From a virus (lineage: Duplodnaviria > Caudoviricetes), in the IMG/VR virus record IMGVR_UViG_3300032038_000027, positions 32,001 through 96,000 of that record: a stretch of DNA of 64,000 nt. One strand, given 5' to 3'. Numbering within the stretch: the first letter of the stretch is position 1; each line of letters starts with the position of its first letter. Below, piece by piece: positions 1 to 35,834 of this stretch. The position numbers were made by a program, and so were the translations under genes. Below the pieces are notes generated by a model that saw only the letters and a program-made list of their open reading frames with translations, did no database searches and was not told the DNA's origin.

Positions 1-2
1 AA

Positions 3-3000
3 TTAAGAAACATGAATAATACCGGCAATCGTTCGCGCAGTACGCTCAATAGTATTGCGGATGGTTTCAGAAATGTTGATATGCAAGCAGGAGCAGCAGG
101 GCTTAAAACCCAGACATTTATGGATAAGCTGCGCACATCGTTTGGTACTGTATCGAGATATATTAGTGCGTCTACGGTGTTATATGCAGTTTTTCGCTCC
201 ATAAGAAATGGCATTTCGAATGTAGTGGAATTAGATACAGCTTTAGTTGATCTAAAGAAAACTACGGATGCTACAGAAAGTCAGTTAGAGAGTTTTTATT
301 ATTCTTCTAATGATATAGCAAAACAATTAGGCGTAACGACTAAGGAAGTCATAAGCGCCGCCGCCGAATGGTCGCGTTTAGGATTAACAAGAATAGTCCC
401 CCTATATGGTGACATATAGGTAAACTTCCTGCTCAAATCGGTGAAACTCCTGAGAAGGACAATACCGAGGGTAAGATTAAAATACTATCAGAAAATTATA
501 AGTAAAGGTGGTGAATAAATGAAAAGAAAAGATTATACAAACCAAAGATTTGGAAGATTAACAGTAGTTGAAATGTTGTATGGTTATAGAAACAAACAAA
601 CATACGCAAGATGTATATGTGATTGTGGTCAAGAAACGATTGCTTATATAGGCAATATAGTAAAAGGTGCAACGGCATCTTGTGGGTGTTGGGAAGAACA
701 ATCAAGGTATAATAGAAAAAATCACGAAAAAGACATTTGCGGAAAAAGATTTGGTCATTTATTGGTTATAAAGAAAACAGATAAAAGATATTTAAATAAA
801 AGTGTTGGGTGGCTATGCAAATGTGATTGTGGGAATGAAATTATTGTTCGTTCTGGAAGTTTATTAAGAGGAAAAACACGTTCTTGTGGTTGTAATAGAA
901 GAAGTAAATATGAAGAATTTGTTGAAGCATATTTAAAATTGGCTAATATTGATTATGATTGCGAACATAGATTTCCAGATTGCAAAAATCATTTTATGCT
1001 TCCTTTTGACTTTTATTTACCAAATCACAATGGCAAGAATTATTGTATAGAGGTGCAAGGGCAACATCACTACGAGCCAATTAAAGGATGGCGTGGAGAA
1101 GAAGGGTTTAGAGATATACAGCGTAATGATTCAATTAAAAGAGATTATTGCAAAAATAATAATATTATTTTAATTGAATTGCCATATACTCTCAAAGAAT
1201 CCGAAGTTATACATAAATTAGATAGTATTTTAAATCCCGTAACGATCACAGCAGCATAAGTAATTATGTTGCGTATGCAGGACATCTTAAAAAGATGAAG
1301 GTATGATCTGCTCTGCAAATATAATCAATTAAATATGAAATTGCAGAGGTAGGCAGAAATGACCTACCCCTTTTCTTTATGAAAAGAGCAACAAAAGGAT
1401 TCGATCAAAGATGCGGAAACTATGGCTAAAACGTCGTCAATATTCTCGTCTATTTCTCCGGGCTTAGATATTGAACAGGCGACAGACGGGCTTGTTTCGG
1501 CTATGAAGGCAAATCTAAATGCCTTGTTGTATAGAAATATGCAACTTGTTTACATTTAACGGCAGGTAAAACCTAAAGCCTTGCACCACAATAATCGGAA
1601 AACCAGATTATGACGGTACGAAAGTAGAAAAAACGCAAGGATGGCATAAGGTCAAAAGCCTAAGTGTTTATACAATGGTAGTTCATGCCGCCAAGCACCC
1701 TAACGTTATACATAGATCATATGTTATTAGTCGAGGGTGAAGGTTCAACGACTATTCCGATAATGGTCGTAGGCTTTGTTAATAAGGGTGGAAATCCCGA
1801 ATATCTACGACAATAGAAGTACGGCGCAATCGCAAATGGCGTGGGTGAAATTCCCTTAAATGGAAAAGGTGTACTCTCATTTTTTGAGATGAAGAAATAG
1901 TCTATTCTCATGTGAAAGCATGAGTGAATTATTGTGATTATTATAATTCAGCCATATCTTGCGAATATGGTAAATAATAAGATTTGATATTGAAGCAAAT
2001 GATGCTTTGGATGGTATCGCCAGTAAGATAAATTCGATTGGCAACAGCCAAGCCGTCAGTAACGAAGATATTGTAGAATTTTTAACAAGATCATCGTCCG
2101 CTATGAAAGAAGCGAACAATAGTCTTGAAGAAACAATAGCGCTTGGCACGGCGGCGACAGAGATCACAAGGGACGCCGCATCCGTCGGACAAGCCCTGAA
2201 AACAGAACTTTGTTTTTGTGTATAGAAATATGCACATAGCACATATTTAATGGCAGGTAAAACCTAAAGCCTTACACCACAATAATCGAGAAATCAGATT
2301 ATGAAGGCACGAAAGTAGAAACAACGTAAGGATAGCGCAAGGTCAAAAGCCTAAACGCTGTTATAATGGTAGTTCTGCCGCGAAGCACCCTAACGTCAAA
2401 CATAGATCATATGTTATTAGTCGAGGGTGAACGTTCAACGACTATTCCGAATAGGGTTACAGACAAGAGAATAAGGGTGGAAATCCCGAATATCTGTAAC
2501 AAAAGAAGTACGGCGCAAATTTAGGCGTGGGTGAAAACCCCTTAAATGGAAAAGGTATGACTGCTATCTTTTAGATGTGGTTAAGAAATAGTCTACTCTC
2601 ATGCGAAAGTATGAGTATCAAGGAATTTCAATGCGTATTAGAGGTAAAATCATCGTTGCCTCCATATTCAGTAATGAATATGCGGTGTACGCTTAAACAC
2701 TGATGATAACTATATCGGTTAAAAGACGGAAGCGTTTTAGACCGAGGGAAGGTTGCGCGTTTACATCGGAAAGGATGTAAATGAAACATAGAAAATATAC
2801 ATTTGAAAGTATTAGCCAAATTCTTAAAGAATATGGCTTTATTTTATTGGATTTTATCTCAACAACAGAATTAATATCAAAAGATAAAGAAGGATATATG
2901 TATAAACTCAATTTGGTCAATTTAAAAAATGGTAAAAAGCCCAATAAATATATGTTAAATCCTTTTGCTTTGGATAATTTTAAACTTTATTTACAAAATA

Positions 3001-6000
3001 ATTATCCACATTATCATTTGTTAGATGATAAATATATTAATAGTAAAACTAAAATGAAATTTATTTGTGATTTACATATAGAAAAAGGCATACAAGAAAA
3101 CTACGTTAGTAACATTGTGCATAATCATCATGCTTGTTTATATTGCGGTTGTAAAGAATTATGGGATAAGAAAAGAACAACGATAGAGCAAATGCAAAAT
3201 GAATGTAGTAGAGTAGGAGTAGAATTTGTTGAAAGAACTTCAAAGAATAATGAATGTTGGGTTAATTATATTTGCCCAAATCATAGAGAAGTTGGCGTTC
3301 AATCTACTTCATGGACACATTTTAAAGAAATTCGTAATGGATGTCCTTTATGCAATAAAATAAGCAAAGGTGAAGATGAAATTTATTTATATTTATCAGA
3401 AAGAGAAATTGATTTTATAAAAGAATATCGGTTTGATGATTGTAAATATAAACGAAGATTACCTTTTGATTATTATTTGCCGCAATATAATATGGTTATT
3501 GAGTACAATGGCAAACAACATTATGAACCCGTAAAGATTTTTGGCGGTAAAGAAAATTACGAAAAAACAGTGTTAAGAGATAAAATAAAACAAGATTACT
3601 GTAAAGATAACAATATTAAAATGATAATAATTCCATATTGGGAGTATAAGAATATAAAAACCATTTTAGATAATGAAATTGGATGTAAAGCGCAAAACCC
3701 GTAACGACTGCGGGAGGTGTTTGGTAACAAACATCTTGAAGTTATCCCCCATTATTAATGGGTGAATATACAGTCTGGACTCACGCAATAACTTAATTAT
3801 GAAACGTGAGAGTAAGGTTTAACGACCTTGCCGCCATTATTTAATGGTCAGTAGCCTATCGGTTGGTGAAAGTAACAGAATCGTATGATGAAGAAACCGA
3901 ACAATTCACTGGTGATGTGGAAATTCTTTCGGGTAAAATCGCTGATTTAACGAAAACGGCTGATAATCCGGGCGGCGTTTCATTATTCACTGATGATTCA
4001 AAAGAAACGTTTAAATCAACAACGCAATTACTCAGAGATATTTCTGAGATTTATGATGAACTTACAGATAAGCAACAAGCCGAATTATTAGAGAAACTTG
4101 CCTCTAAAAGGCAGGGACAGATAGTTGCGGCAATCCTCAACAATTTTGATGCCGTAGAATCCTCACTTAAAACGATGGAAAATTCAGCGGGTAATGCCGA
4201 AGCTGAAATGTCGGTTATTATGGATTCTATGGAATATAAGATCAATAAATTAAAAGAAACAGGCACAGGTGTATTTCAAAATTTATTTAAAACTGAAGAT
4301 ATGGGAAATATCGTCGAGTTATTAACCGATGTATTGAATGTAGTGGATTTCTTAACTAATAAGGTTGGCTTATTAGGAACTGCTATGATTGCCGTTCCCA
4401 TAGTTTCTTTTATTAAAAATTTTGGAGAATTAAAACTTTTAGGTATACAAGGTTCAACAAGCATAACTGCCGTTTCTGCTGCAATTAAAGGTTTGACCAT
4501 AGATGAAGCGGCGGCGGCATTAGCTACTACTAATTTATCTGAGGCTGAAATAGCCGCTGTTCTTGTAAAGAACGGATTTACAAGTGCTACGGCATTAGAA
4601 ACAGCTGCAAATATAGTTGATGCAAGAACGAAAGAAGCAGCGGCGGCATCAACTATGGGTTTAGCGGGTGCTGAAACTACTGCTACTGCTACTACTTCTG
4701 GTTTGGCGGGTGCAACAGGAGGACTAACAGCTGCATTTAATGGTTTGAAAGCAGCGATTGTAAGTAACCCCATTGGATTCATAGCTACTGTTGCTGTTGC
4801 AGCATTTGTGACTATTAATACTATAATCAATAGTATTGAAAGTGCTTCTGAAAAACTTGAAAATAGTTCTGAAAAAGTTGCTGATGCAAAAAGTGAATTA
4901 GATGGATTAAATTCAGAATTATCTACGACTCAAAAAAGAATTATAGAATTAAATCAATTAGATTCACTTACACTTGTGCAAAAAAATGAACTGCGCGATT
5001 TAAAGAAAACTAATGCAGAGCTAAAACAAAAAATAGCTTTGCAAAAGCAATTACTATTAACTGAGCAAAAGGCGAATGAAGATAATTTTGTAAAAGCAGT
5101 AAATTCAAAAACTAATTCTTCTGAAAATTCAGAAAATTTCAAATGGTATTATCCTTTATTGCAAAATATACCACTGGTTAGTTTGTTTAATGAAGATGTT
5201 CGAAAATGGAAATATTCAGATCATACAAATAATCAACAGAGATTTGATAATTATGTAGAAAATTATTCTAAAGCAGATGATGATAAACTCACAAAAGATG
5301 TTTTTGGCAATACTATTGAAAGTAAAAAAGCCATGAGCGAATTTATGGGTAAATATATTCAAGAATTATCTGACTATGTAGAACAATTAGGCGATTATGA
5401 TTATAAGTCATTATCTGATGAAGCGAAAAAATCAGTAGACCTTTATTATGATAATTTAAATAAATTTAGTGTAATAATGGGCGAATACTCTGATGCTTGG
5501 AATGGTGTTTATAATCAACAGAGATTTGATTCGGCTCGCGAAAAAATAGAAGAAGTATCTAAAGATGGCTTAACAGGCGATGAACTTTCCGATTTATATA
5601 ATAATAATTCCGATGTAAAAGCTATGATAGACAACATGAAGGAAGTCGGTTTAATTAGCGGAAATGTTGAGGATAATTTTGCGGGAATTGCTTTAAATAT
5701 TTCAAAAGCTGATAAAAATATTGATTCTTTTTCTAATAATGAAAAGATTAGTTTTTCTGATTTAATGAAAAATGAATCTTTTACAGATCAGGTAGATGAT
5801 TATAAAGATAAACTCACTGAACTTGACGAAGCATTAGAAAAACTGCGTGACGGTACTTTAAGCGAAGAAGATAAAACTGATTTATTTATGGATTTCCCTG
5901 AATTGGCAGGGCAAGCTGATAATCTTGATGAAGCAATTACTAATTTAATAAGCGATACTGAAAATAATGCTATTGATTATTTCGACAAAAAGGTAGGAAA

Positions 6001-8962
6001 TATGGATACGGAAGAATCCGTAAATGCCTTAAATAATCTCAAAAATAGCATTTTGGGTCTATCAAACGCCACGGGACATAGTTCTGAGGTTGAAGAATAT
6101 CGCGATATTTTAAATCATTTAGAAACTAAGGAATCTTGTGATAATATTGATGAACTTACCGAAAAAATGAAATCATATGCTGACGAGTATAATAGACTTG
6201 TTGGTTATGGTAAAAAAGGTAATGTTGATTATAATAAAAGACCTGTTGTTTCAAAAGATGATGTAAAGGAGAAATATCCTGATTTTGATGGTGATTATGC
6301 TACTACATACGATCAAGGTTATGAAATTACGGATTCGAGCGGCAAGAATTATGCGGTTGTCGTAACACCCATTTTAGAAAATGGTAAAATTTTATCTCAG
6401 GAAGAATTAGATAAATATATTGATGATGTTTTAGAAGGTTCGGACGATGTATTAGAGGCAGATACTAAAAATCTAATAATTCATGCGGAGGCTGAAGGTG
6501 AAGGAGATTATTGGATTAAAAACGATGATGGCAGTCTTGAATTTGATTTTGAAAGTTTTAACGAGCAGTTAATTCCTGCAAAAGAGGGACATTTAGAAGC
6601 CTATCTTGATATTAATACCAATATGGACGATCTTATTCCTTATGCGGATAAATTAGGAATCTCTGTTGAACAGTTGAAATCAATAGGTGATATTCCCGCC
6701 GATCTATTTGCATCTGCTGATGAAGTAACCGATAAAATATCAAAACTCACATCGGAAATAGATGGTTTATCTGACACATATTCTGATATGATATCTATTA
6801 TAGAAGATTATAATGATAATGGTTATCTTACTCTTGATAATTTACAATCTATAATGGATATGGAACCGGAATATATTAATTTACTTATTGATGAAAATGG
6901 GCAAATTAATCTTAATAGTCAAGCATATAAGGACTATGTAGCATCTAAAGCAAAATCATTATTGGTTAATGAACTGCAAGATTTATATAATTCTATTCTT
7001 GGTATGCAAGTGGAAGAGGCACAGGCTTATGCGAACGCACAAGCATATGATGAAGAAACAGAAAGTGTGCAAAGTCTGCTTAATGCTACCACTAAATTAT
7101 ATTATGCCAAAGCTATGGCGAAAGATTCCGCTAATAATACTACTGCTTATACGGATGCTTTATCTCAGTCATTTAATACGGCGGCGAATTATGCTGCTAT
7201 GGTAGATAGTTATATTAGTAGTTTATCTACGCCTTTAAATGAATTTGATGTTGCCACAGAAGAAGCTACCGATTCTACTGACGAAATGACCTCGGCATTA
7301 GAAGCGGAAAAAGATGCTCTCGAATCCCAAAAAGATGCTTTGGAGGATAGTAAAGATTCTTTAGAGGATTATAAAGATTCAATAACTGATGCACAATCTG
7401 ATATTCAAAGTTTAATTGATCTTGTAACCGATTATATTAAGCAAACTAAAGAGGATGAAAAATCTGCTATACAAGACAGCATTGATGCTTTAGAAGATAA
7501 GAAAACTTCGTTGGATGAACAGAAAGATGCTTATTCTGAACTGATTGATAAACGCAAGGAAGAAATTGAGGCTTTATATGAAGAAAAGAAAGCCCAAGAT
7601 GAATTATCAGAAAAGCAAAAATCTGTCGCCAAAGATGCACTTGCATTAGCTGTTGCACAACTTGATGATAGTTCAGCCGGAAGAAAAGCGCAAAAGCAAG
7701 CACAAGATAATTTAAATACCAGTAATAAAGACCTAAAAGATTATCTTGATGAACAAGAAAAAGATAAACGTATTGAGGCTCTCGAAAACGATGAAACTGA
7801 ATACGAAGAAATGATTGAGAAACGTAAAGCTGCTATTGATGAACAAGTTGAATATTACGAATCTAAGATTGATGAAATAGACGCTTATCTTGATAATTCT
7901 CGTCAAATGTATGAAGATGCTTGCGCTATGATTGATAATGATACGGGCGAATTATATAGTAAATTATGGAATGAATATGTATATCCATATACTACACAAA
8001 CTCGCGCGGAATTCGATCATTTGTGGAGTAGCGCACAAGAAGCAATTCAAAAATACATTGGGGACAATGGAACATTAATTGGTACTATGGAATGGCTGCA
8101 AACTGAGATTTATACTACAGAATCGCAGATCGCAGAACTTGATAGCCAAATTGGAATTTTGGATGATTCGATAGATGATATTGATGAATCTATTAATAGC
8201 GTCAGTAGTTCAGTAGATACACAAAAAGATAAAGTAGGCGAACTTGGTAAGTCGTGGTCAAGTGCTACTTCCGATGTATCTAAATATATTGATGAATTAA
8301 ATAAGATACCAGATAGTGTTCCTGCTGTTAACAATACATCAAATCAAAATGATATTGAGATACCTTCGGATGCAAAATGGTATTTTGATTATTATAAAAA
8401 CGGGAAATTACATCGAGCTTGGTCTAAATCGAGAGATTATAATGTTGCCGTACAAGATATTATGAGGGAAATCCAAAAAGAAACTGGACAATACCGATCA
8501 GATGTATATGGTGGCATAAAGAAACGATATGCAGTAGGAACGTATAGCTCTATTGGCGGCGTTGCTGTAACGCAAGAGAATAATCGACTCGAAGAAATTT
8601 TCGGTAAATTACAAAATGGTCAATACACTATGATGTCTGAGGGTTCTCATGTATTAACACCACAGGCGACTACTAATTTACATAAATTCGCAGATAATCC
8701 CCCTGAATTTGTCGCACAGGCATTAAGTTATAGCGGATATTTGGGTAGAATTGAAAATGCGGCAAGAAACGTTGTAAGAAACATTGATAATCGTTCAATG
8801 GGCAATACTGAGATTTCTGCGCCGATTCAAATAAGTATTCAAGGTGATGCTACTCAATCAACCGTTAATGCTTTAAGAGCGGAATCAAAGAATATTGAGG
8901 AATCTATCATTAAAAAATTAGTAAGGATTAGAGAAGGAAAAAGAGGAATTATGATTAAATAA
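3..8962 (+). CDS. Phage tail tape measure protein, 5'-partial, split by four group I introns: join(<3..384,1399..1510,1982..2203,2624..2645,3884..8962)
   Basis: Manual splicing restores a continuous TMP core: EWSRLG-Y-SIKDAETMAK...LVSAMK-A-FDIEANDALDG...GQALK-T-ISMRIRG-YDEETEQF. Exon phases add up. A long Ala-rich/coiled-coil C-terminal exon precedes Dit. Confidence 0.92.
385..1398 (+). ncRNA. Group I intron 1 of tape measure gene (HEG-containing)
   Basis: Exon ends in U384 and intron ends in G1398. P4 tcggt/accga; P7 gatca/tgatc; 13-bp P6 extension 477-489/1221-1233 around the HEG. Confidence 0.88.
519..1259 (+). CDS. Intron-encoded homing endonuclease (Cys-rich DNA-binding repeats plus Vsr/PD-(D/E)XK-like nuclease)
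   Basis: Two RFGxL..CxCDCG..SCGC repeats; C-terminal LPFDFYLP..IEVQGQHHY; lies inside intron 1. Confidence 0.8.
   Translation: MKRKDYTNQRFGRLTVVEMLYGYRNKQTYARCICDCGQETIAYIGNIVKGATASCGCWEEQSRYNRKNHEKDICGKRFGHLLVIKKTDKRYLNKSVGWLCKCDCGNEIIVRSGSLLRGKTRSCGCNRRSKYEEFVEAYLKLANIDYDCEHRFPDCKNHFMLPFDFYLPNHNGKNYCIEVQGQHHYEPIKGWRGEEGFRDIQRNDSIKRDYCKNNNIILIELPYTLKESEVIHKLDSILNPVTITAA
1511..1981 (+). ncRNA. Group I intron 2 of tape measure gene (ORF-less, 471 nt)
   Basis: P1 aaggc/gcctt; P7 elements caacgactatt / aagaaatagtct; ends in G1981; removal restores AMK-A-FDIE. Confidence 0.85.
2204..2623 (+). ncRNA. Group I intron 3 of tape measure gene (ORF-less, 420 nt, paralog of intron 2)
   Basis: P1 aaaac/gtttt; caacgactatt / aagaaatagtct; ends in G2623; removal restores ALK-T-ISMRIRG; long identical blocks shared with intron 2. 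Confidence 0.85.
2646..3883 (+). ncRNA. Group I intron 4 of tape measure gene (HEG-containing)
   Basis: P1 gaggU/Gcctc with U.G pair; P7 gactg/cagtc; ends in G3883; removal gives ISMRIRG-YDEETE. Confidence 0.88.
2781..3704 (+). CDS. Intron-encoded homing endonuclease (CxxH/CxxC repeats plus Vsr/PD-(D/E)XK-like nuclease)
   Basis: SKGEDEI...RLPFDYYLP..VIEYNGKQHY...D..K..YC; lies inside intron 4. Confidence 0.8.
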   Translation: MKHRKYTFESISQILKEYGFILLDFISTTELISKDKEGYMYKLNLVNLKNGKKPNKYMLNPFALDNFKLYLQNNYPHYHLLDDKYINSKTKMKFICDLHIEKGIQENYVSNIVHNHHACLYCGCKELWDKKRTTIEQMQNECSRVGVEFVERTSKNNECWVNYICPNHREVGVQSTSWTHFKEIRNGCPLCNKISKGEDEIYLYLSEREIDFIKEYRFDDCKYKRRLPFDYYLPQYNMVIEYNGKQHYEPVKIFGGKENYEKTVLRDKIKQDYCKDNNIKMIIIPYWEYKNIKTILDNEIGCKAQNP

Positions 8963-26834: not shown

Positions 26835-27290
26835 AGGTTAAGGGCTAATTTTATGGTAGGCGCTTTTGCGGGCTGCCTTGTCTGTGGTTTGGTGGTTGCG
26901 CTCTCCGAATACTGGTAATACCAACAACTTCTGGAACATCAACACCAATGGCACGACGAACAACAACAACGCGAACAACTTCTACGCGCTTTGCCCCTGA
27001 TTCTCATTTTATAGTAGCTACGTTATAGGAGTGAAGGAGATATTTTTTAAGATATTATCTAAATTGAGAAGGAGCTTTTAACCTTCTATTTTATTTTTTT
27101 AAAATAGCAAATATACGCACCGATTATGCTTTAATTTTCGGTACGCCATGCTGTATTATGCGGCATGACGGTTCTGTTTCAGGAAAGTTGAAGCTACTTG
27201 CATGGTAGTGGGGATTGCGGCAACCACTATTTCATACTTGCCTGAGAAAGCTGTAACTCGCAATCAAATATTAAGCCCGACAGAAGTATT
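26835..27290 (+). ncRNA. Structured DGR RNA (leader + TR + spacer)
   Basis: 26835-26846 pairs with 27073-27084; nested stems catgctgta/tgcggcatg, tcagg..aagt/actt..cctga, tagtgg/ccacta, ttctgt/acagaa. Confidence 0.6.
26882..27005 (+). repeat. DGR template region (TR)
   Basis: Non-coding copy of VR with 13 AAY codons in the target frame. Confidence 0.97.
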
Positions 27291-31279: not shown

Positions 31280-31354
31280 TGGAGGCGACGAACGGATTTG
31301 AACCGATGAATCAGGCTTTTGCAGAGCCGTGCCTTACCACTTGGCTACGTCGCC
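31280..31354 (-). tRNA. tRNA-Cys(GCA)
   Basis: GGCGACG/CGTCGCC acceptor stem, U73, encoded CCA, CTGCAAA anticodon loop, TTCAAAT T-loop. Confidence 0.93.
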
Positions 31355-31742: not shown

Positions 31743-32183
31743 TTATCTCCTACCAAATTCCCTTTTGTCACTTCGCCACACCATAATGTTTTGATGGGCT
31801 TCAGCTTCTTCTTTTGTTGTAAATACGCGCATATTAATGCTGTTTTGATTAGATAGCATAAGATCATTTGATACAGATGAACCGATATCTGTTTTCATTG
31901 TGAAACTATAATAGAGTTTCTTTTTAAGGGTAATTTTATACAGTCGCATTTTAACTATTTTATTTGATATATCATCTTTTGGCATAATCACATAATATAA
32001 GTTACCGACTTGTAATTCTTTTGATATGTGATTCATTATAATGCCTAAAGCATCTGAAAGTCCCGCAACATAGTGTTCTTGACAACTATTTTGAATACCT
32101 TTCATTTCAAAATTGATCTTATCTTGTAATTCTTTAATTGCCGGATGCGTGTATTCAATTTGAATCGGTGCTACCAAAGCCAC
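31743..32183 (-). CDS. Hypothetical protein (start uncertain)
   Basis: ORF fills the operon gap. Confidence 0.5.
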   Translation of the reverse strand: MALVAPIQIEYTHPAIKELQDKINFEMKGIQNSCQEHYVAGLSDALGIIMNHISKELQVGNLYYVIMPKDDISNKIVKMRLYKITLKKKLYYSFTMKTDIGSSVSNDLMLSNQNSINMRVFTTKEEAEAHQNIMVWRSDKREFGRR

Positions 32184-33258: not shown

Positions 33259-35834
33259 TTATCCTTTTAAATGTTTTACTCTATCTTCGGTTTCTGCTCT
33301 TTTGCCCGGATTAAATGCTTCAATGTAATCACCAGTTAGATATCCTGTTACTCGGCGCAATCTGCGAATTTCTGTACATCCACATTTGGGGCAAGCATCT
33401 TTAATTTCATCCGTCCAACCGCAGTTTTTGCACATATCATTAGGTACATTTGCCGCCGCATAAGGAATATCCTTATCCATCGCATAGTTAATAATGGTTT
33501 CAACTGCTTTAGGATTATCTTTTACACGAGCATTTAATTCAACATAAGTAATACAACCTGCACTTGAATAACCAGTTAATTGAGATTCAATATCAATTTT
33601 TTCGAAAGGAGTCATTTCTTTCCAAACAGGAACATGAATTGAATTAGTAAAATATTCACGATCAGAAACATTTGGAATAACGCCATATTTTTCTTTAAAC
33701 TTCTTCATGGCTGTATAGCAAAGATTTTCAGCAGGAGTATAATACACACCAAAGTTTAGTTTATATTTAGTTTTAAATTCAGCGCAGCGATCTTTGAATA
33801 ATTGCTCAATTTTTTTCGCAAGTTCCATGCCTCTTTCTTCGGTATGATCGCAACCGATAAGAATTTGAAGAGCTTCTGCAAGACCGAGCTGACCTACTGC
33901 AAGCGTACCATGCTTTAATGCAGATCGAATATCTTTACCATCATAGCCCTCCATTAAACCGTTTTCATACATGAACTTTGCGGCATCTGCGGGCTGAGAA
34001 CAAATATATTCAAATCTTTCAATAAGCATATCTTTCGCTTCGTGGATTTTTGCATCGAGCATATTTAAGAATACAGTAGGAATATCATCGTCATAATTTG
34101 AATCATATGATTCTTTCGCCATCATAGCGATTGTCGGTAAAATAATTGTTACGGGGCAGATATTTCCACGACCATCTTTTAATTGACCGAAGCCGTTAAT
34201 ATCATACCCATTAGCTGTTCTACACGTTTAAACCCTCTGTCACCAGAGGAACTGACTATATCTTCTATCTTTCGATAGCCTTCCGCTTCGGATGCGTGCC
34301 TATCTCGCATCCTACTCCCTTACATTCATCAGGGATAGTCGATACACTTTTAATTTAGCATAGATATTTTAATACTATTCTAAATCACTTAGCACGGTTT
34401 CAACTTATTAACTAAGTCCTGACCGTTAGCCCGTTTTATCGGACACCTTCGGGCGAAGTTCAAAAGGTTTTAGATGAGCTGTAGTTTACGCTTACCCATC
34501 GTTGAGAAATATGTTTTAGGGTCATTTCTGTCATATCCCTTATTACCAGACCAATCTACATTAGCGTAGTTCGGATATAATCTTAATGATGTTGATCTGA
34601 TTGCTAACTGGAATAAATCGTAATTTGGTTCGCCCTCTTTACGATTCACGCCGCGCATTAATTGAAAAATACCGCACGGGAAAATAGAGGTTTTATGTAG
34701 CTTGCCGATACCTTTAATCGAGGTTTCGAGTAGGCAACGAATAATCAGTCTACCTTCGGGAGAAGTGCAAGTACCGTAGTTGATTGAGGTGAATGGCAAC
34801 TGGTTTCCTGACCTGCTTTGAAGTGTATTTAAATTGTGATACATTCCCTCAACAGCTTGTTTGGTTTCAATAATTGTGTCATATAAAGCACTTTGCGCGT
34901 ATTTCTTGTTTAAATCAGTATTACCGAGATGATAATCATCTTCGGTTGTATTAGTTGCGGCGAAAAATTCGTCCTTATGGGAATCTACCCAATCATCAAA
35001 TCTGTTTCTCCAAACAATATTGCCATCAACGATTTCTTTGTAATCATCGAAAACCATATTAATGAGATCAAGTTCGACAAACTCAGGACGATCTTTTAGC
35101 CATGCGGCGATATAATGCTTTAGGAAACTTTTCTTAACATACGGCACCATTGTCCAATCTAAGTGTGTAGCGGAAACGCCGCCAAATTGCTGAAGGCTCT
35201 GTAATTGGAAAATCACAGCTACTAATTGAAAAGCTGTGCCTACAGATTGTGCGGGTCGAACATCTGTTTGTCTTGTGTTAAATCCATTTGCTAATAATTT
35301 ATCAAAAGGAATAGACAAGCAGTTATGATCTCCGACAGAATAATGGTCTAAATCATGAACGTAAATCATATTATTCACATGATTGATATAAGACATTTTA
35401 GACATTCGATTATTTAGTGCATCGTCTTTCATGGTTACACTTAGCGCAGCGCCCATTCTGCCGCCAAATGAATGTTCATCAACATTTGCGTTCTGATTCT
35501 TAACATTCTTCGCAAAGAGTTTTTCTTCCACTTCTTTCGAAAGTTTACTCTTTTGTTGTCTTGCGCGTGTTCTGTCGTTACGATAGATAATGTATGCTTT
35601 TGCGACATCTTTGCGAGAACTCTGCATGAGCTGCTTTTCGATAAGGTCTTGGATTTCTTCTACATTCATTTGTGGCTTATCAAGATTTGTAATGGATTGA
35701 GCAATATTCTCACAAATCTTTTCGGACGTTTCATCAAAATAGCCATCAATTTCGATGAAAGCCTTTTTCATGGCGTTGAGAATTTTCTGAACATTAAACT
35801 CTACAACACGACCATCACGTTTAATTACTTTCAT
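33259..35834 (-). CDS. nrdD: Class III ribonucleotide reductase, intron-split: complement(join(33259..34224,34494..35834))
   Basis: ATP-cone MKVIKRDG; HDLD..NC; splicing restores STMG-CRT; C-terminal CxxC..CxxC and RRVTGYL glycyl motif. Confidence 0.95.
34225..34493 (-). ncRNA. Group I intron in nrdD (269 nt, ORF-less)
   Basis: P1 gatgggU/Gctcatc; R gtatcgacta, S aagatatagtc; terminal G before TGT (Cys). Confidence 0.92.

Follow-up and report, generated by a model that had tools for sequence, protein, structure and literature searches.

Must the 5′ splice site of a group I intron carry a U·G wobble pair? The question is raised by two introns in the tape-measure gene of an uncultured tailed phage, in which the last base of the upstream exon appears to be a C, held in Watson-Crick pairing by a G of the intron's guide sequence. 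The gene lies at the start of the window analyzed here, a 64,000-nucleotide stretch (positions 32,001 to 96,000) of IMG/VR virus record IMGVR_UViG_3300032038_000027, a contig of 115.7 kb; all positions given below are those of the window. The U·G pair at the group I 5′ splice site is nearly invariant (PMC2504315, PMC1891724). Virtually all group I introns have been reported to follow a U paired with G, and the presence of a C at a site has been used to explain why an intron is absent from it (Tourasse and Kolsto 2008, PMC2504315). On the evidence of sequence comparison, we put forward, at a probability of roughly 0.8, that introns 2 and 3 of this gene are sister subgroup IA introns devoid of an open reading frame (ORF) that would splice next to a Watson-Crick C-G pair, and that this would be a trait of the whole tape-measure intron family to which they belong.

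The tape-measure protein is encoded by positions 3-8962, which yield an open frame of 1939 codons after four intervening sequences are removed. Two of these, intron 2 (1511..1981, plus strand, 471 nucleotides [nt]) and intron 3 (2204..2623, plus strand, 420 nt), contain no ORF and match the Rfam group I model RF00028 over its full span (38.0 bits, E = 2.7e-7, and 34.4 bits, E = 3.1e-6, respectively); they are 83% identical to each other and emerge as sisters on the family tree (Shimodaira-Hasegawa-like approximate likelihood ratio test, SH-aLRT, 91). The paired element P1 of intron 2 (1506..1525, plus strand) joins exon bases AAGGC (1506-1510) to the guide GCCTT (1521-1525) through 5 base pairs (bp), with C1510-G1521 at the cut site and A1511-U1520 as the next pair. 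Its P10 consists of 5 bp between guide bases TAAAT (1516-1520) and ATTTG of the following exon (1982-1986), and the resulting P1/P10 layout is the classical one, since the P10 guide bases directly adjoin the G paired to C1510. The P1 hairpin of intron 3 (2199..2216, plus strand) likewise comprises 5 bp, between exon AAAAC (2199-2203) and guide GTTTT (2212-2216), with C2203-G2212 at the cut site, A2204-U2211 as the next pair and a P10 of 2 + 3 bp. The Watson-Crick pairing of a C at position -1, proposed in a preliminary description of this DNA, is confirmed in both introns by their sequence and by their homologues, and neither intron carries the U·G wobble.

Both introns also retain the guanosine-binding site in P7, as had been noted from the GACUA/UAGUC pairing. 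In intron 2, its strands are GACTA (1750..1754, plus strand) and TAGTC (1898..1902, plus strand; sequence and covariation), with G1750-C1902 as the G-binding pair; in intron 3 they are GACTA (2440..2444, plus strand) and TAGTC (2589..2593, plus strand; sequence), with G2440-C2593 in that role. At their 3′ ends, intron 2 terminates as ...AATAAG^ATTT (a caret marks the splice junction throughout), with G1981 as its terminal guanosine (omega-G), and intron 3 as ...CAAGG^AATT, with G2623 as omega-G (...TATCAAGG^AATTTC). The junction CAAGG^AATTTCAATGCGTAT is found at the same site in two relatives (L016 and L008), and no G other than G1981 and G2623 is compatible with the junctions supported by homologues.

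Three comparisons fix those junctions: with homologues that have no interruption, with a DNA allele lacking the intron, and with homologous introns located at the same sites. According to translation and comparison with homologues, exon 2 (1399..1510, plus strand) ends in ...GCT ATG AAG GC, C1510 being the second position of an Ala codon, and exon 3 (1982..2203, plus strand) encodes (A)FDIEANDAL...SVGQALK(T), C2203 being the second position of a Thr codon. Uninterrupted tape-measure proteins from Brevibacillus phage Sundance, Bacillus phage Kirov, Enterocloster phage PMBT24 and one faecal phage contig read x-(A/G)-F and L-(K/R)-(T/S/A)-(I/V/L)-S at the two sites, with no change in length (LVSTIKGFGV, INSQMKAFNF and ALKTVSMRLRG). 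Contigs from one metatranscriptome (X19) and from three DNA runs were mapped onto positions 1-4200 of the window, and a DNA contig (run X1) fuses position 1510, a single G and position 1983 into AAGGC-G-TTTGAT, confirming the intron 2 junction. The predicted mRNA junctions, AAGGC^A for intron 2 and AAAAC^A for intron 3, are thus well supported.

The preliminary description had held that restoration of the reading frame alone forces these junctions, which overstates the case. A U lies 6 nt upstream and another 6 nt downstream of each proposed cut (U1504 and U1516; U2197 and U2209), and cleavage after any of them would equally preserve the frame if omega-G is kept, making the protein two residues shorter or longer per site; U2197, moreover, pairs with G2218 at the outer end of an extended P1 helix. 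We nonetheless regard these as very improbable splice sites, since they would add or remove two residues, unlike what is seen in the uninterrupted homologues, every one of which has exactly the length given by cleavage after C, and in the intron-less AAGGC-G-TTTGAT contig. Exons ending at U1504, U1516 or U2209 would also find no guide sequence to pair with, and the P10 of intron 2 abuts the C-G pair.

The proposed fold was evaluated on 31 family members using 63 base pairs in 13 helices, from P1 to P9, with P7 treated as a pseudoknot (P3/P7). Standard pairs occupy 97.1% of the cells, as against a mean of 78.7% in shuffled controls and 32-45% when partners are slid, and compensatory changes occur in 51 of the 63 pairs, against a shuffled mean of 33.6; none of 500 shuffles reached the observed values for pairing or compensation. 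All five pairs of P1 show compensatory changes, and RNAalifold, applied to the 31 homologues, predicts the same P1 and independently recovers P1-P6 and P8. The G-binding pair of P7 is G-C in all 31 members, with two neighbouring P7 pairs covarying (CG/UA and UA/CG). Splicing of these introns is argued for by the covariation of P1 with the exon and by the uninterrupted reading frame (1939 codons) of a gene essential to the virion. The roughly 110 nt that separate P7 (1750-1754) from P3′ (about 1867-1873) in intron 2 contain two further covarying helices (alignment columns 393-426 and 427-441), which would correspond to P7.1/P7.2, a mark of subgroup IA.

Whether the C-G pair is peculiar to these two introns can be judged from their relatives. 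IMG/VR was pattern-scanned three times and the output passed through nhmmer, a filter needed because a 15-mer pattern scan gave mostly chance hits; this returned 145 hits, reduced to 70 distinct P1 contexts by de-duplication. The automatically assigned P1 register was corrected by eye for several members (L010, L017, L021, L022b, L060a, L138 and L154b), and L209 and L177 were resolved as well. C-G stands at the cut site in 41 of the 70 contexts, U·G in 21, U-A in seven and an unclear pair in one (L046). This tabulation of the -1 base and its P1 partner, which the preliminary description had suggested as a check, supports its proposal that the unusual pair is a trait of the lineage. Wherever exons are readable, the interrupted genes are tape-measure-like. 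Introns with C-G are found at about a dozen places in the protein, including MKA^F, (K/R)T^(I/V)S, xQA^, VVD^, IRA^M and TRA^, together with RQA^N, REA^D, a Gly site with codon GGC and others. At the (K/R)T site, the exon may end in AAAAC, AAGAC, AGGAC or CGCAC, with GTTTT, GTCTT, GTCC or GTGCG in the guide to match, and the C-G pair is always kept. The seven U-A members (L151, L170, L160, L196, L174, L162 and the second intron of L022) have an exon ending in ...GGU and a guide beginning with ACC... In what appears to be a single Gly site, different phages present GGU·G, GGU-A or GGC-G.

Most C-G contexts, about 33 of the 41, place the C at the second position of an Ala or Thr codon, where a U would change the residue. 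In about five, the C stands at the end of a GAC or GGC codon, and replacing it by the synonymous U would restore the wobble (verified in L146 and L207). All members share a 5′ arm composed of the exon/guide P1, one or two weak pairs and a P2 hairpin closed by a GNRA loop, with the guide base that faces the end of the exon placed 13 nt ahead of that loop (14 nt in a few members).

Several considerations weigh against the proposed reading. The RF00028 scores of introns 2 and 3 (38.0 and 34.4 bits) fall below the Rfam gathering threshold of 50. The family sample was collected with patterns taken from introns 2 and 3, and the proportions reported above are valid for this family only. The search for 3′ splice sites required a G, which makes the constancy of that G informative only alongside the test of protein continuity. 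The X19 RNA contigs stop short of both junctions, giving no RNA support for the splicing of introns 2 and 3. The joining segments J4/5, J5/4, J6/7 and J8/7 are alike in C-G and U·G members, and no compensating change was identified in these parts of the core; J4/5, J5/4 and J8/7 contact P1 in solved group I structures. Efficient splicing next to C-G would call for compensation, since in the Tetrahymena ribozyme a C(-1)-G22 pair raises the rate of undocking about 80-fold (PMC1891724). Finally, the first base of each intron and the first base of its 3′ exon are both A, with the result that cleavage after A1511 or A2204, combined with a terminal omega-A, yields the identical mRNA.

This last point, which the preliminary description had already raised, is one on which we agree: DNA or cDNA sequence cannot separate the two registers. 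If the cut lay one base further on, it would follow an A paired with U, and the introns would end in A1982 or A2624; the two A's are alike because both pair with the same guide U. Such a register would agree with the A...U pair found just past the cut site in 57 of the 70 contexts and with the presence of the shared A in nearly all members. We consider it distinctly unlikely for several reasons. It would turn every member into a non-canonical intron, even L021, L031 and L060b, whose U·G is ideally positioned, and it would give no reason for the G invariably found before the shared A on the 3′ side. The G-C identity of the P7 G-binding pair in all 31 members also speaks against it, for in group I introns this pair selects G. 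Cleavage after C is favoured over cleavage after A because the U of the U·G members sits exactly where the others have C, as in L021/L022 (CAACU^A...U GGUUG), in which the first intron base, omega-G and the P10 layout are the same as in the C-G members.

The 3′ side of the cleavage after C could be followed in about 25 members, whose 3′ exon was identified by protein continuity with uninterrupted homologues. In each of them, a G directly precedes the first exon base and a P10 of 2-8 pairs abuts P1. Verified members with C-G are L012, L014, L016, L019, L028, L090, L100, L072, L094, L110, L141, L157, L165, L176, L180, L144, L146, L203 and L207; those with U·G are L021, L031 and L060b, and those with U-A are L151 and L170. 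When the exons of the U-A member L151 are joined, the product, ...GG^KRNANAVSAILNNF, matches an uninterrupted protein at every one of these residues.

How an intron might splice at such a site can be outlined in terms of the usual two steps. An external guanosine would attack just past the exon's final base, which P1 holds in place; the exon end released in this way would then attack the bond that follows omega-G, the 3′ exon being positioned by P10. In this family, the cut site would be set mainly by the geometry of the P1-P2 arm, acting as a ruler, and the wobble itself would matter little; such a role for the arm is suggested by the fixed distance between the guide G and the GNRA loop of P2 (L2), the very short J1/2 and the weak pairs inside the cut site. 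The C sites may have arisen because the guide G can pair with either C or U, allowing a spreading intron to land after a C, and most of them would then have been fixed by the protein, through the second position of Ala and Thr codons. Splicing, the exact register of the cut and the ruler are all elements that we infer from comparative sequence data.

The distribution of pair types bears on how the lineage relates to its cut site. When the P1 columns are left out of tree building, the C-G, U·G and U-A states are mixed on the tree, with at least 6 changes, 2 of them forced by well-supported branches, and a C-G member (L009) and a U·G member (L021) are near-identical sisters. The preliminary description had envisaged a ribozyme lineage adapted to C-G splice sites. 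The lineage-wide character of the pair stands, as the tally of 70 contexts indicates, whereas adaptation fits less well: tolerance of a Watson-Crick pair seems to describe the lineage better than specialisation for C-G, because no core difference between C-G and U·G members was found and because the two states occur in sister taxa. The simplest reading is that the core does not depend much on the wobble, and the wobble does not appear to be under visible selection in the family. One may go further and suppose that this ribozyme lineage has dispensed with the G·U wobble, relying instead on the position of the arm and its L2 GNRA loop and treating C-G, U-A and U·G about equally; we advance this tentatively, as a possibility somewhat short of even odds.

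The C-G pair could instead be a handicap, borne by introns that were carried in with the homing endonucleases of their neighbours, held at a C by the protein and spliced poorly or with the help of proteins. The ORF-less introns 2 and 3 do lie between the ORF-bearing introns 1 and 4, the C is fixed by an Ala or Thr codon in the approximately 33 contexts described above, C(-1)-G22 weakens docking in Tetrahymena (PMC1891724), and the title of a study of two fungal mitochondrial introns raises the same idea (Hur and Waring 1995). We nevertheless judge this account unlikely. The C is retained at synonymous third positions as well (GAC and GGC), U-A is found where the guide could simply be G, C-G and U·G introns occur as near-identical sisters, and C-G predominates in an essential virion gene, as seen in many phage contigs.

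Comparison with known systems places the twin introns in a recognizable setting. Tape-measure genes of Bacillus cereus-group prophages contain TMP-IVS1 and TMP-IVS2, a pair of IA2 introns approximately 80% identical at different sites of one gene, which, like the twins described here, have conserved cores and a P1 and guide re-fitted to each site, some of them lacking a complete endonuclease gene (PMC2504315). The likeness is one of arrangement; against the rule stated in that paper, a C precedes the twins and the majority of their family. Segments of the core are shared with more distantly related introns in the Staphylococcus phage BE02 endolysin gene, Bacillus phage AR9 g205 and Enterocloster phage CB457P1 (BLAST identity of 72-85%), all three of which, as read from their sequence, differ from the twins in being cut next to a canonical U·G. 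The overall architecture is that of cultured-phage IA2 introns, comprising P1-P2, P3-P9, extra helices between P7 and P3′, J6/7-P7 GTTCAACGACTA and J8/7-P7 AAGAAATAGTC. We take the T4 td and Twort orf142-I2 introns, of subgroup IA2, to share this same architecture.

A C at the cut site is not without precedent, the wobble being a near-universal feature of group I introns and not one that strictly defines them. The title of Hur and Waring 1995 (Nucleic Acids Res 23:4466), as cited in PMC6468297, refers to two fungal mitochondrial introns with C·G, a natural replacement of U·G that, to judge from that title, resembles the one described here. The title also raises protein selection as a reason, which fits the C at the second position of Ala and Thr codons in most sites of the phage family. 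As far as the title conveys, the fungal case concerns two exceptions among all known introns, whereas in the phage family C-G is the majority state, extends to synonymous positions and is found alongside U-A. The phenomenon is the same, but kinship between the fungal and the phage introns is not expected. The C(-1)·G22 substitution in the Tetrahymena ribozyme is the same, but was engineered in an intron of subgroup IC1, whereas here it is natural, widespread and apparently tolerated. In the open-access literature, whose incomplete coverage makes this weak evidence of novelty, we found no phage intron family that lacks the wobble or has it as a minority state. A C·G cut site thus has precedent, and a family with a C-G majority appears to be new.

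The remaining features of the locus outline the context in which these introns are found. Upstream of the twins, intron 1 (385-1398, plus strand; ORF 519-1259) follows U384, and its junction, U384^...G1398^A, which restores a conserved RLGY motif, was placed by an RNA-library contig and by the conserved LGY motif; the intron is bridged by that one RNA-library contig and by DNA contigs. In intron-less DNA contigs from two runs (window 376-395 / 1390-1410), the RLGY codon for Y (TAT) is replaced by one for F (TTT). Downstream, a micro-exon of 22 nt (exon 4, 2624..2645, plus strand), encoding (T)ISMRIRG, separates intron 3 from intron 4 (2646-3883, plus strand; ORF 2781-3704), which follows U2645. 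Alleles without intron 1 and without intron 4 are present in DNA contigs from other samples. Comparison of introns 1 and 4 with the Rfam group I model gave no convincing match, and a Pfam search of their ORFs (519-1259 and 2781-3704) matched no family. The encoded proteins, of 246 and 307 amino acids, share Cys-rich repeats and a C-terminal ...LPFD(F/Y)YLP...HY... block. A further group I intron-like element (34233-34572, minus strand; RF00028, 34.1 bits, E = 1.5e-6) shows a canonical U·G at P1 in the Rfam alignment. Together with introns 1 and 4, it accounts for three of the four additional introns that the preliminary description had credited with a U at position -1; the fourth was not located. 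Elsewhere in the window, there is a weak partial match to the Rfam RT-2 RNA (27172-27285, plus strand; 32.1 bits against a gathering threshold of 40, E = 0.001) and a phage-borne tRNA-Cys (GCA) gene (31280-31354, minus strand).

The 3′ ends of family members vary. Intron 2 ends in a terminal hairpin, CCATAT-CTTGCGA-ATATGG, and an 11-nt tail closing with omega-G1981 (1952..1981, plus strand). Kindred hairpins with loop GTTGCGA or GTTGTGA directly precede the 3′ splice site in L012, L014, L016 and L021, and these relatives carry an endonuclease ORF between P9 and the hairpin. Intron 3 has no terminal hairpin and ends 8 nt past P9. Two or three introns of the family are found within one tape-measure gene in L008 (MT835469.1), L165, L180, L092, L040, L110 and L011, with C-G and U·G pairs mixed in a single gene in L165, L180 and L110.

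As to the source of this phage, near-identical sequence words come chiefly from bovine and goat gut metagenomes. Two related introns reside on contigs binned as uncultured Clostridia, and a scan of bacterial genome contigs for the family found only these two, both from Clostridia metagenome-assembled genomes. The phage that carries the twin introns is most likely a large phage of rumen or gut Clostridia.

The U·G wobble is central to models of P1 docking into the ribozyme core, and it is also used to predict insertion sites. The occurrence of three states on nearly the same core provides natural matched sets, such as L009 and L021 or the trio at the Gly site, for studying what the wobble contributes and how a ribozyme manages in its absence. 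Intron finders and annotation pipelines that require a U at position -1 would misplace junctions in these phage genes. The family should interest those who study ribozymes and be of use in phage gene annotation, and a U at the target site might cease to be a requirement for engineered trans-splicing or circularising ribozymes. For the introns themselves, should the lineage indeed be free of the wobble, sites that are not preceded by a U could be open to colonisation.

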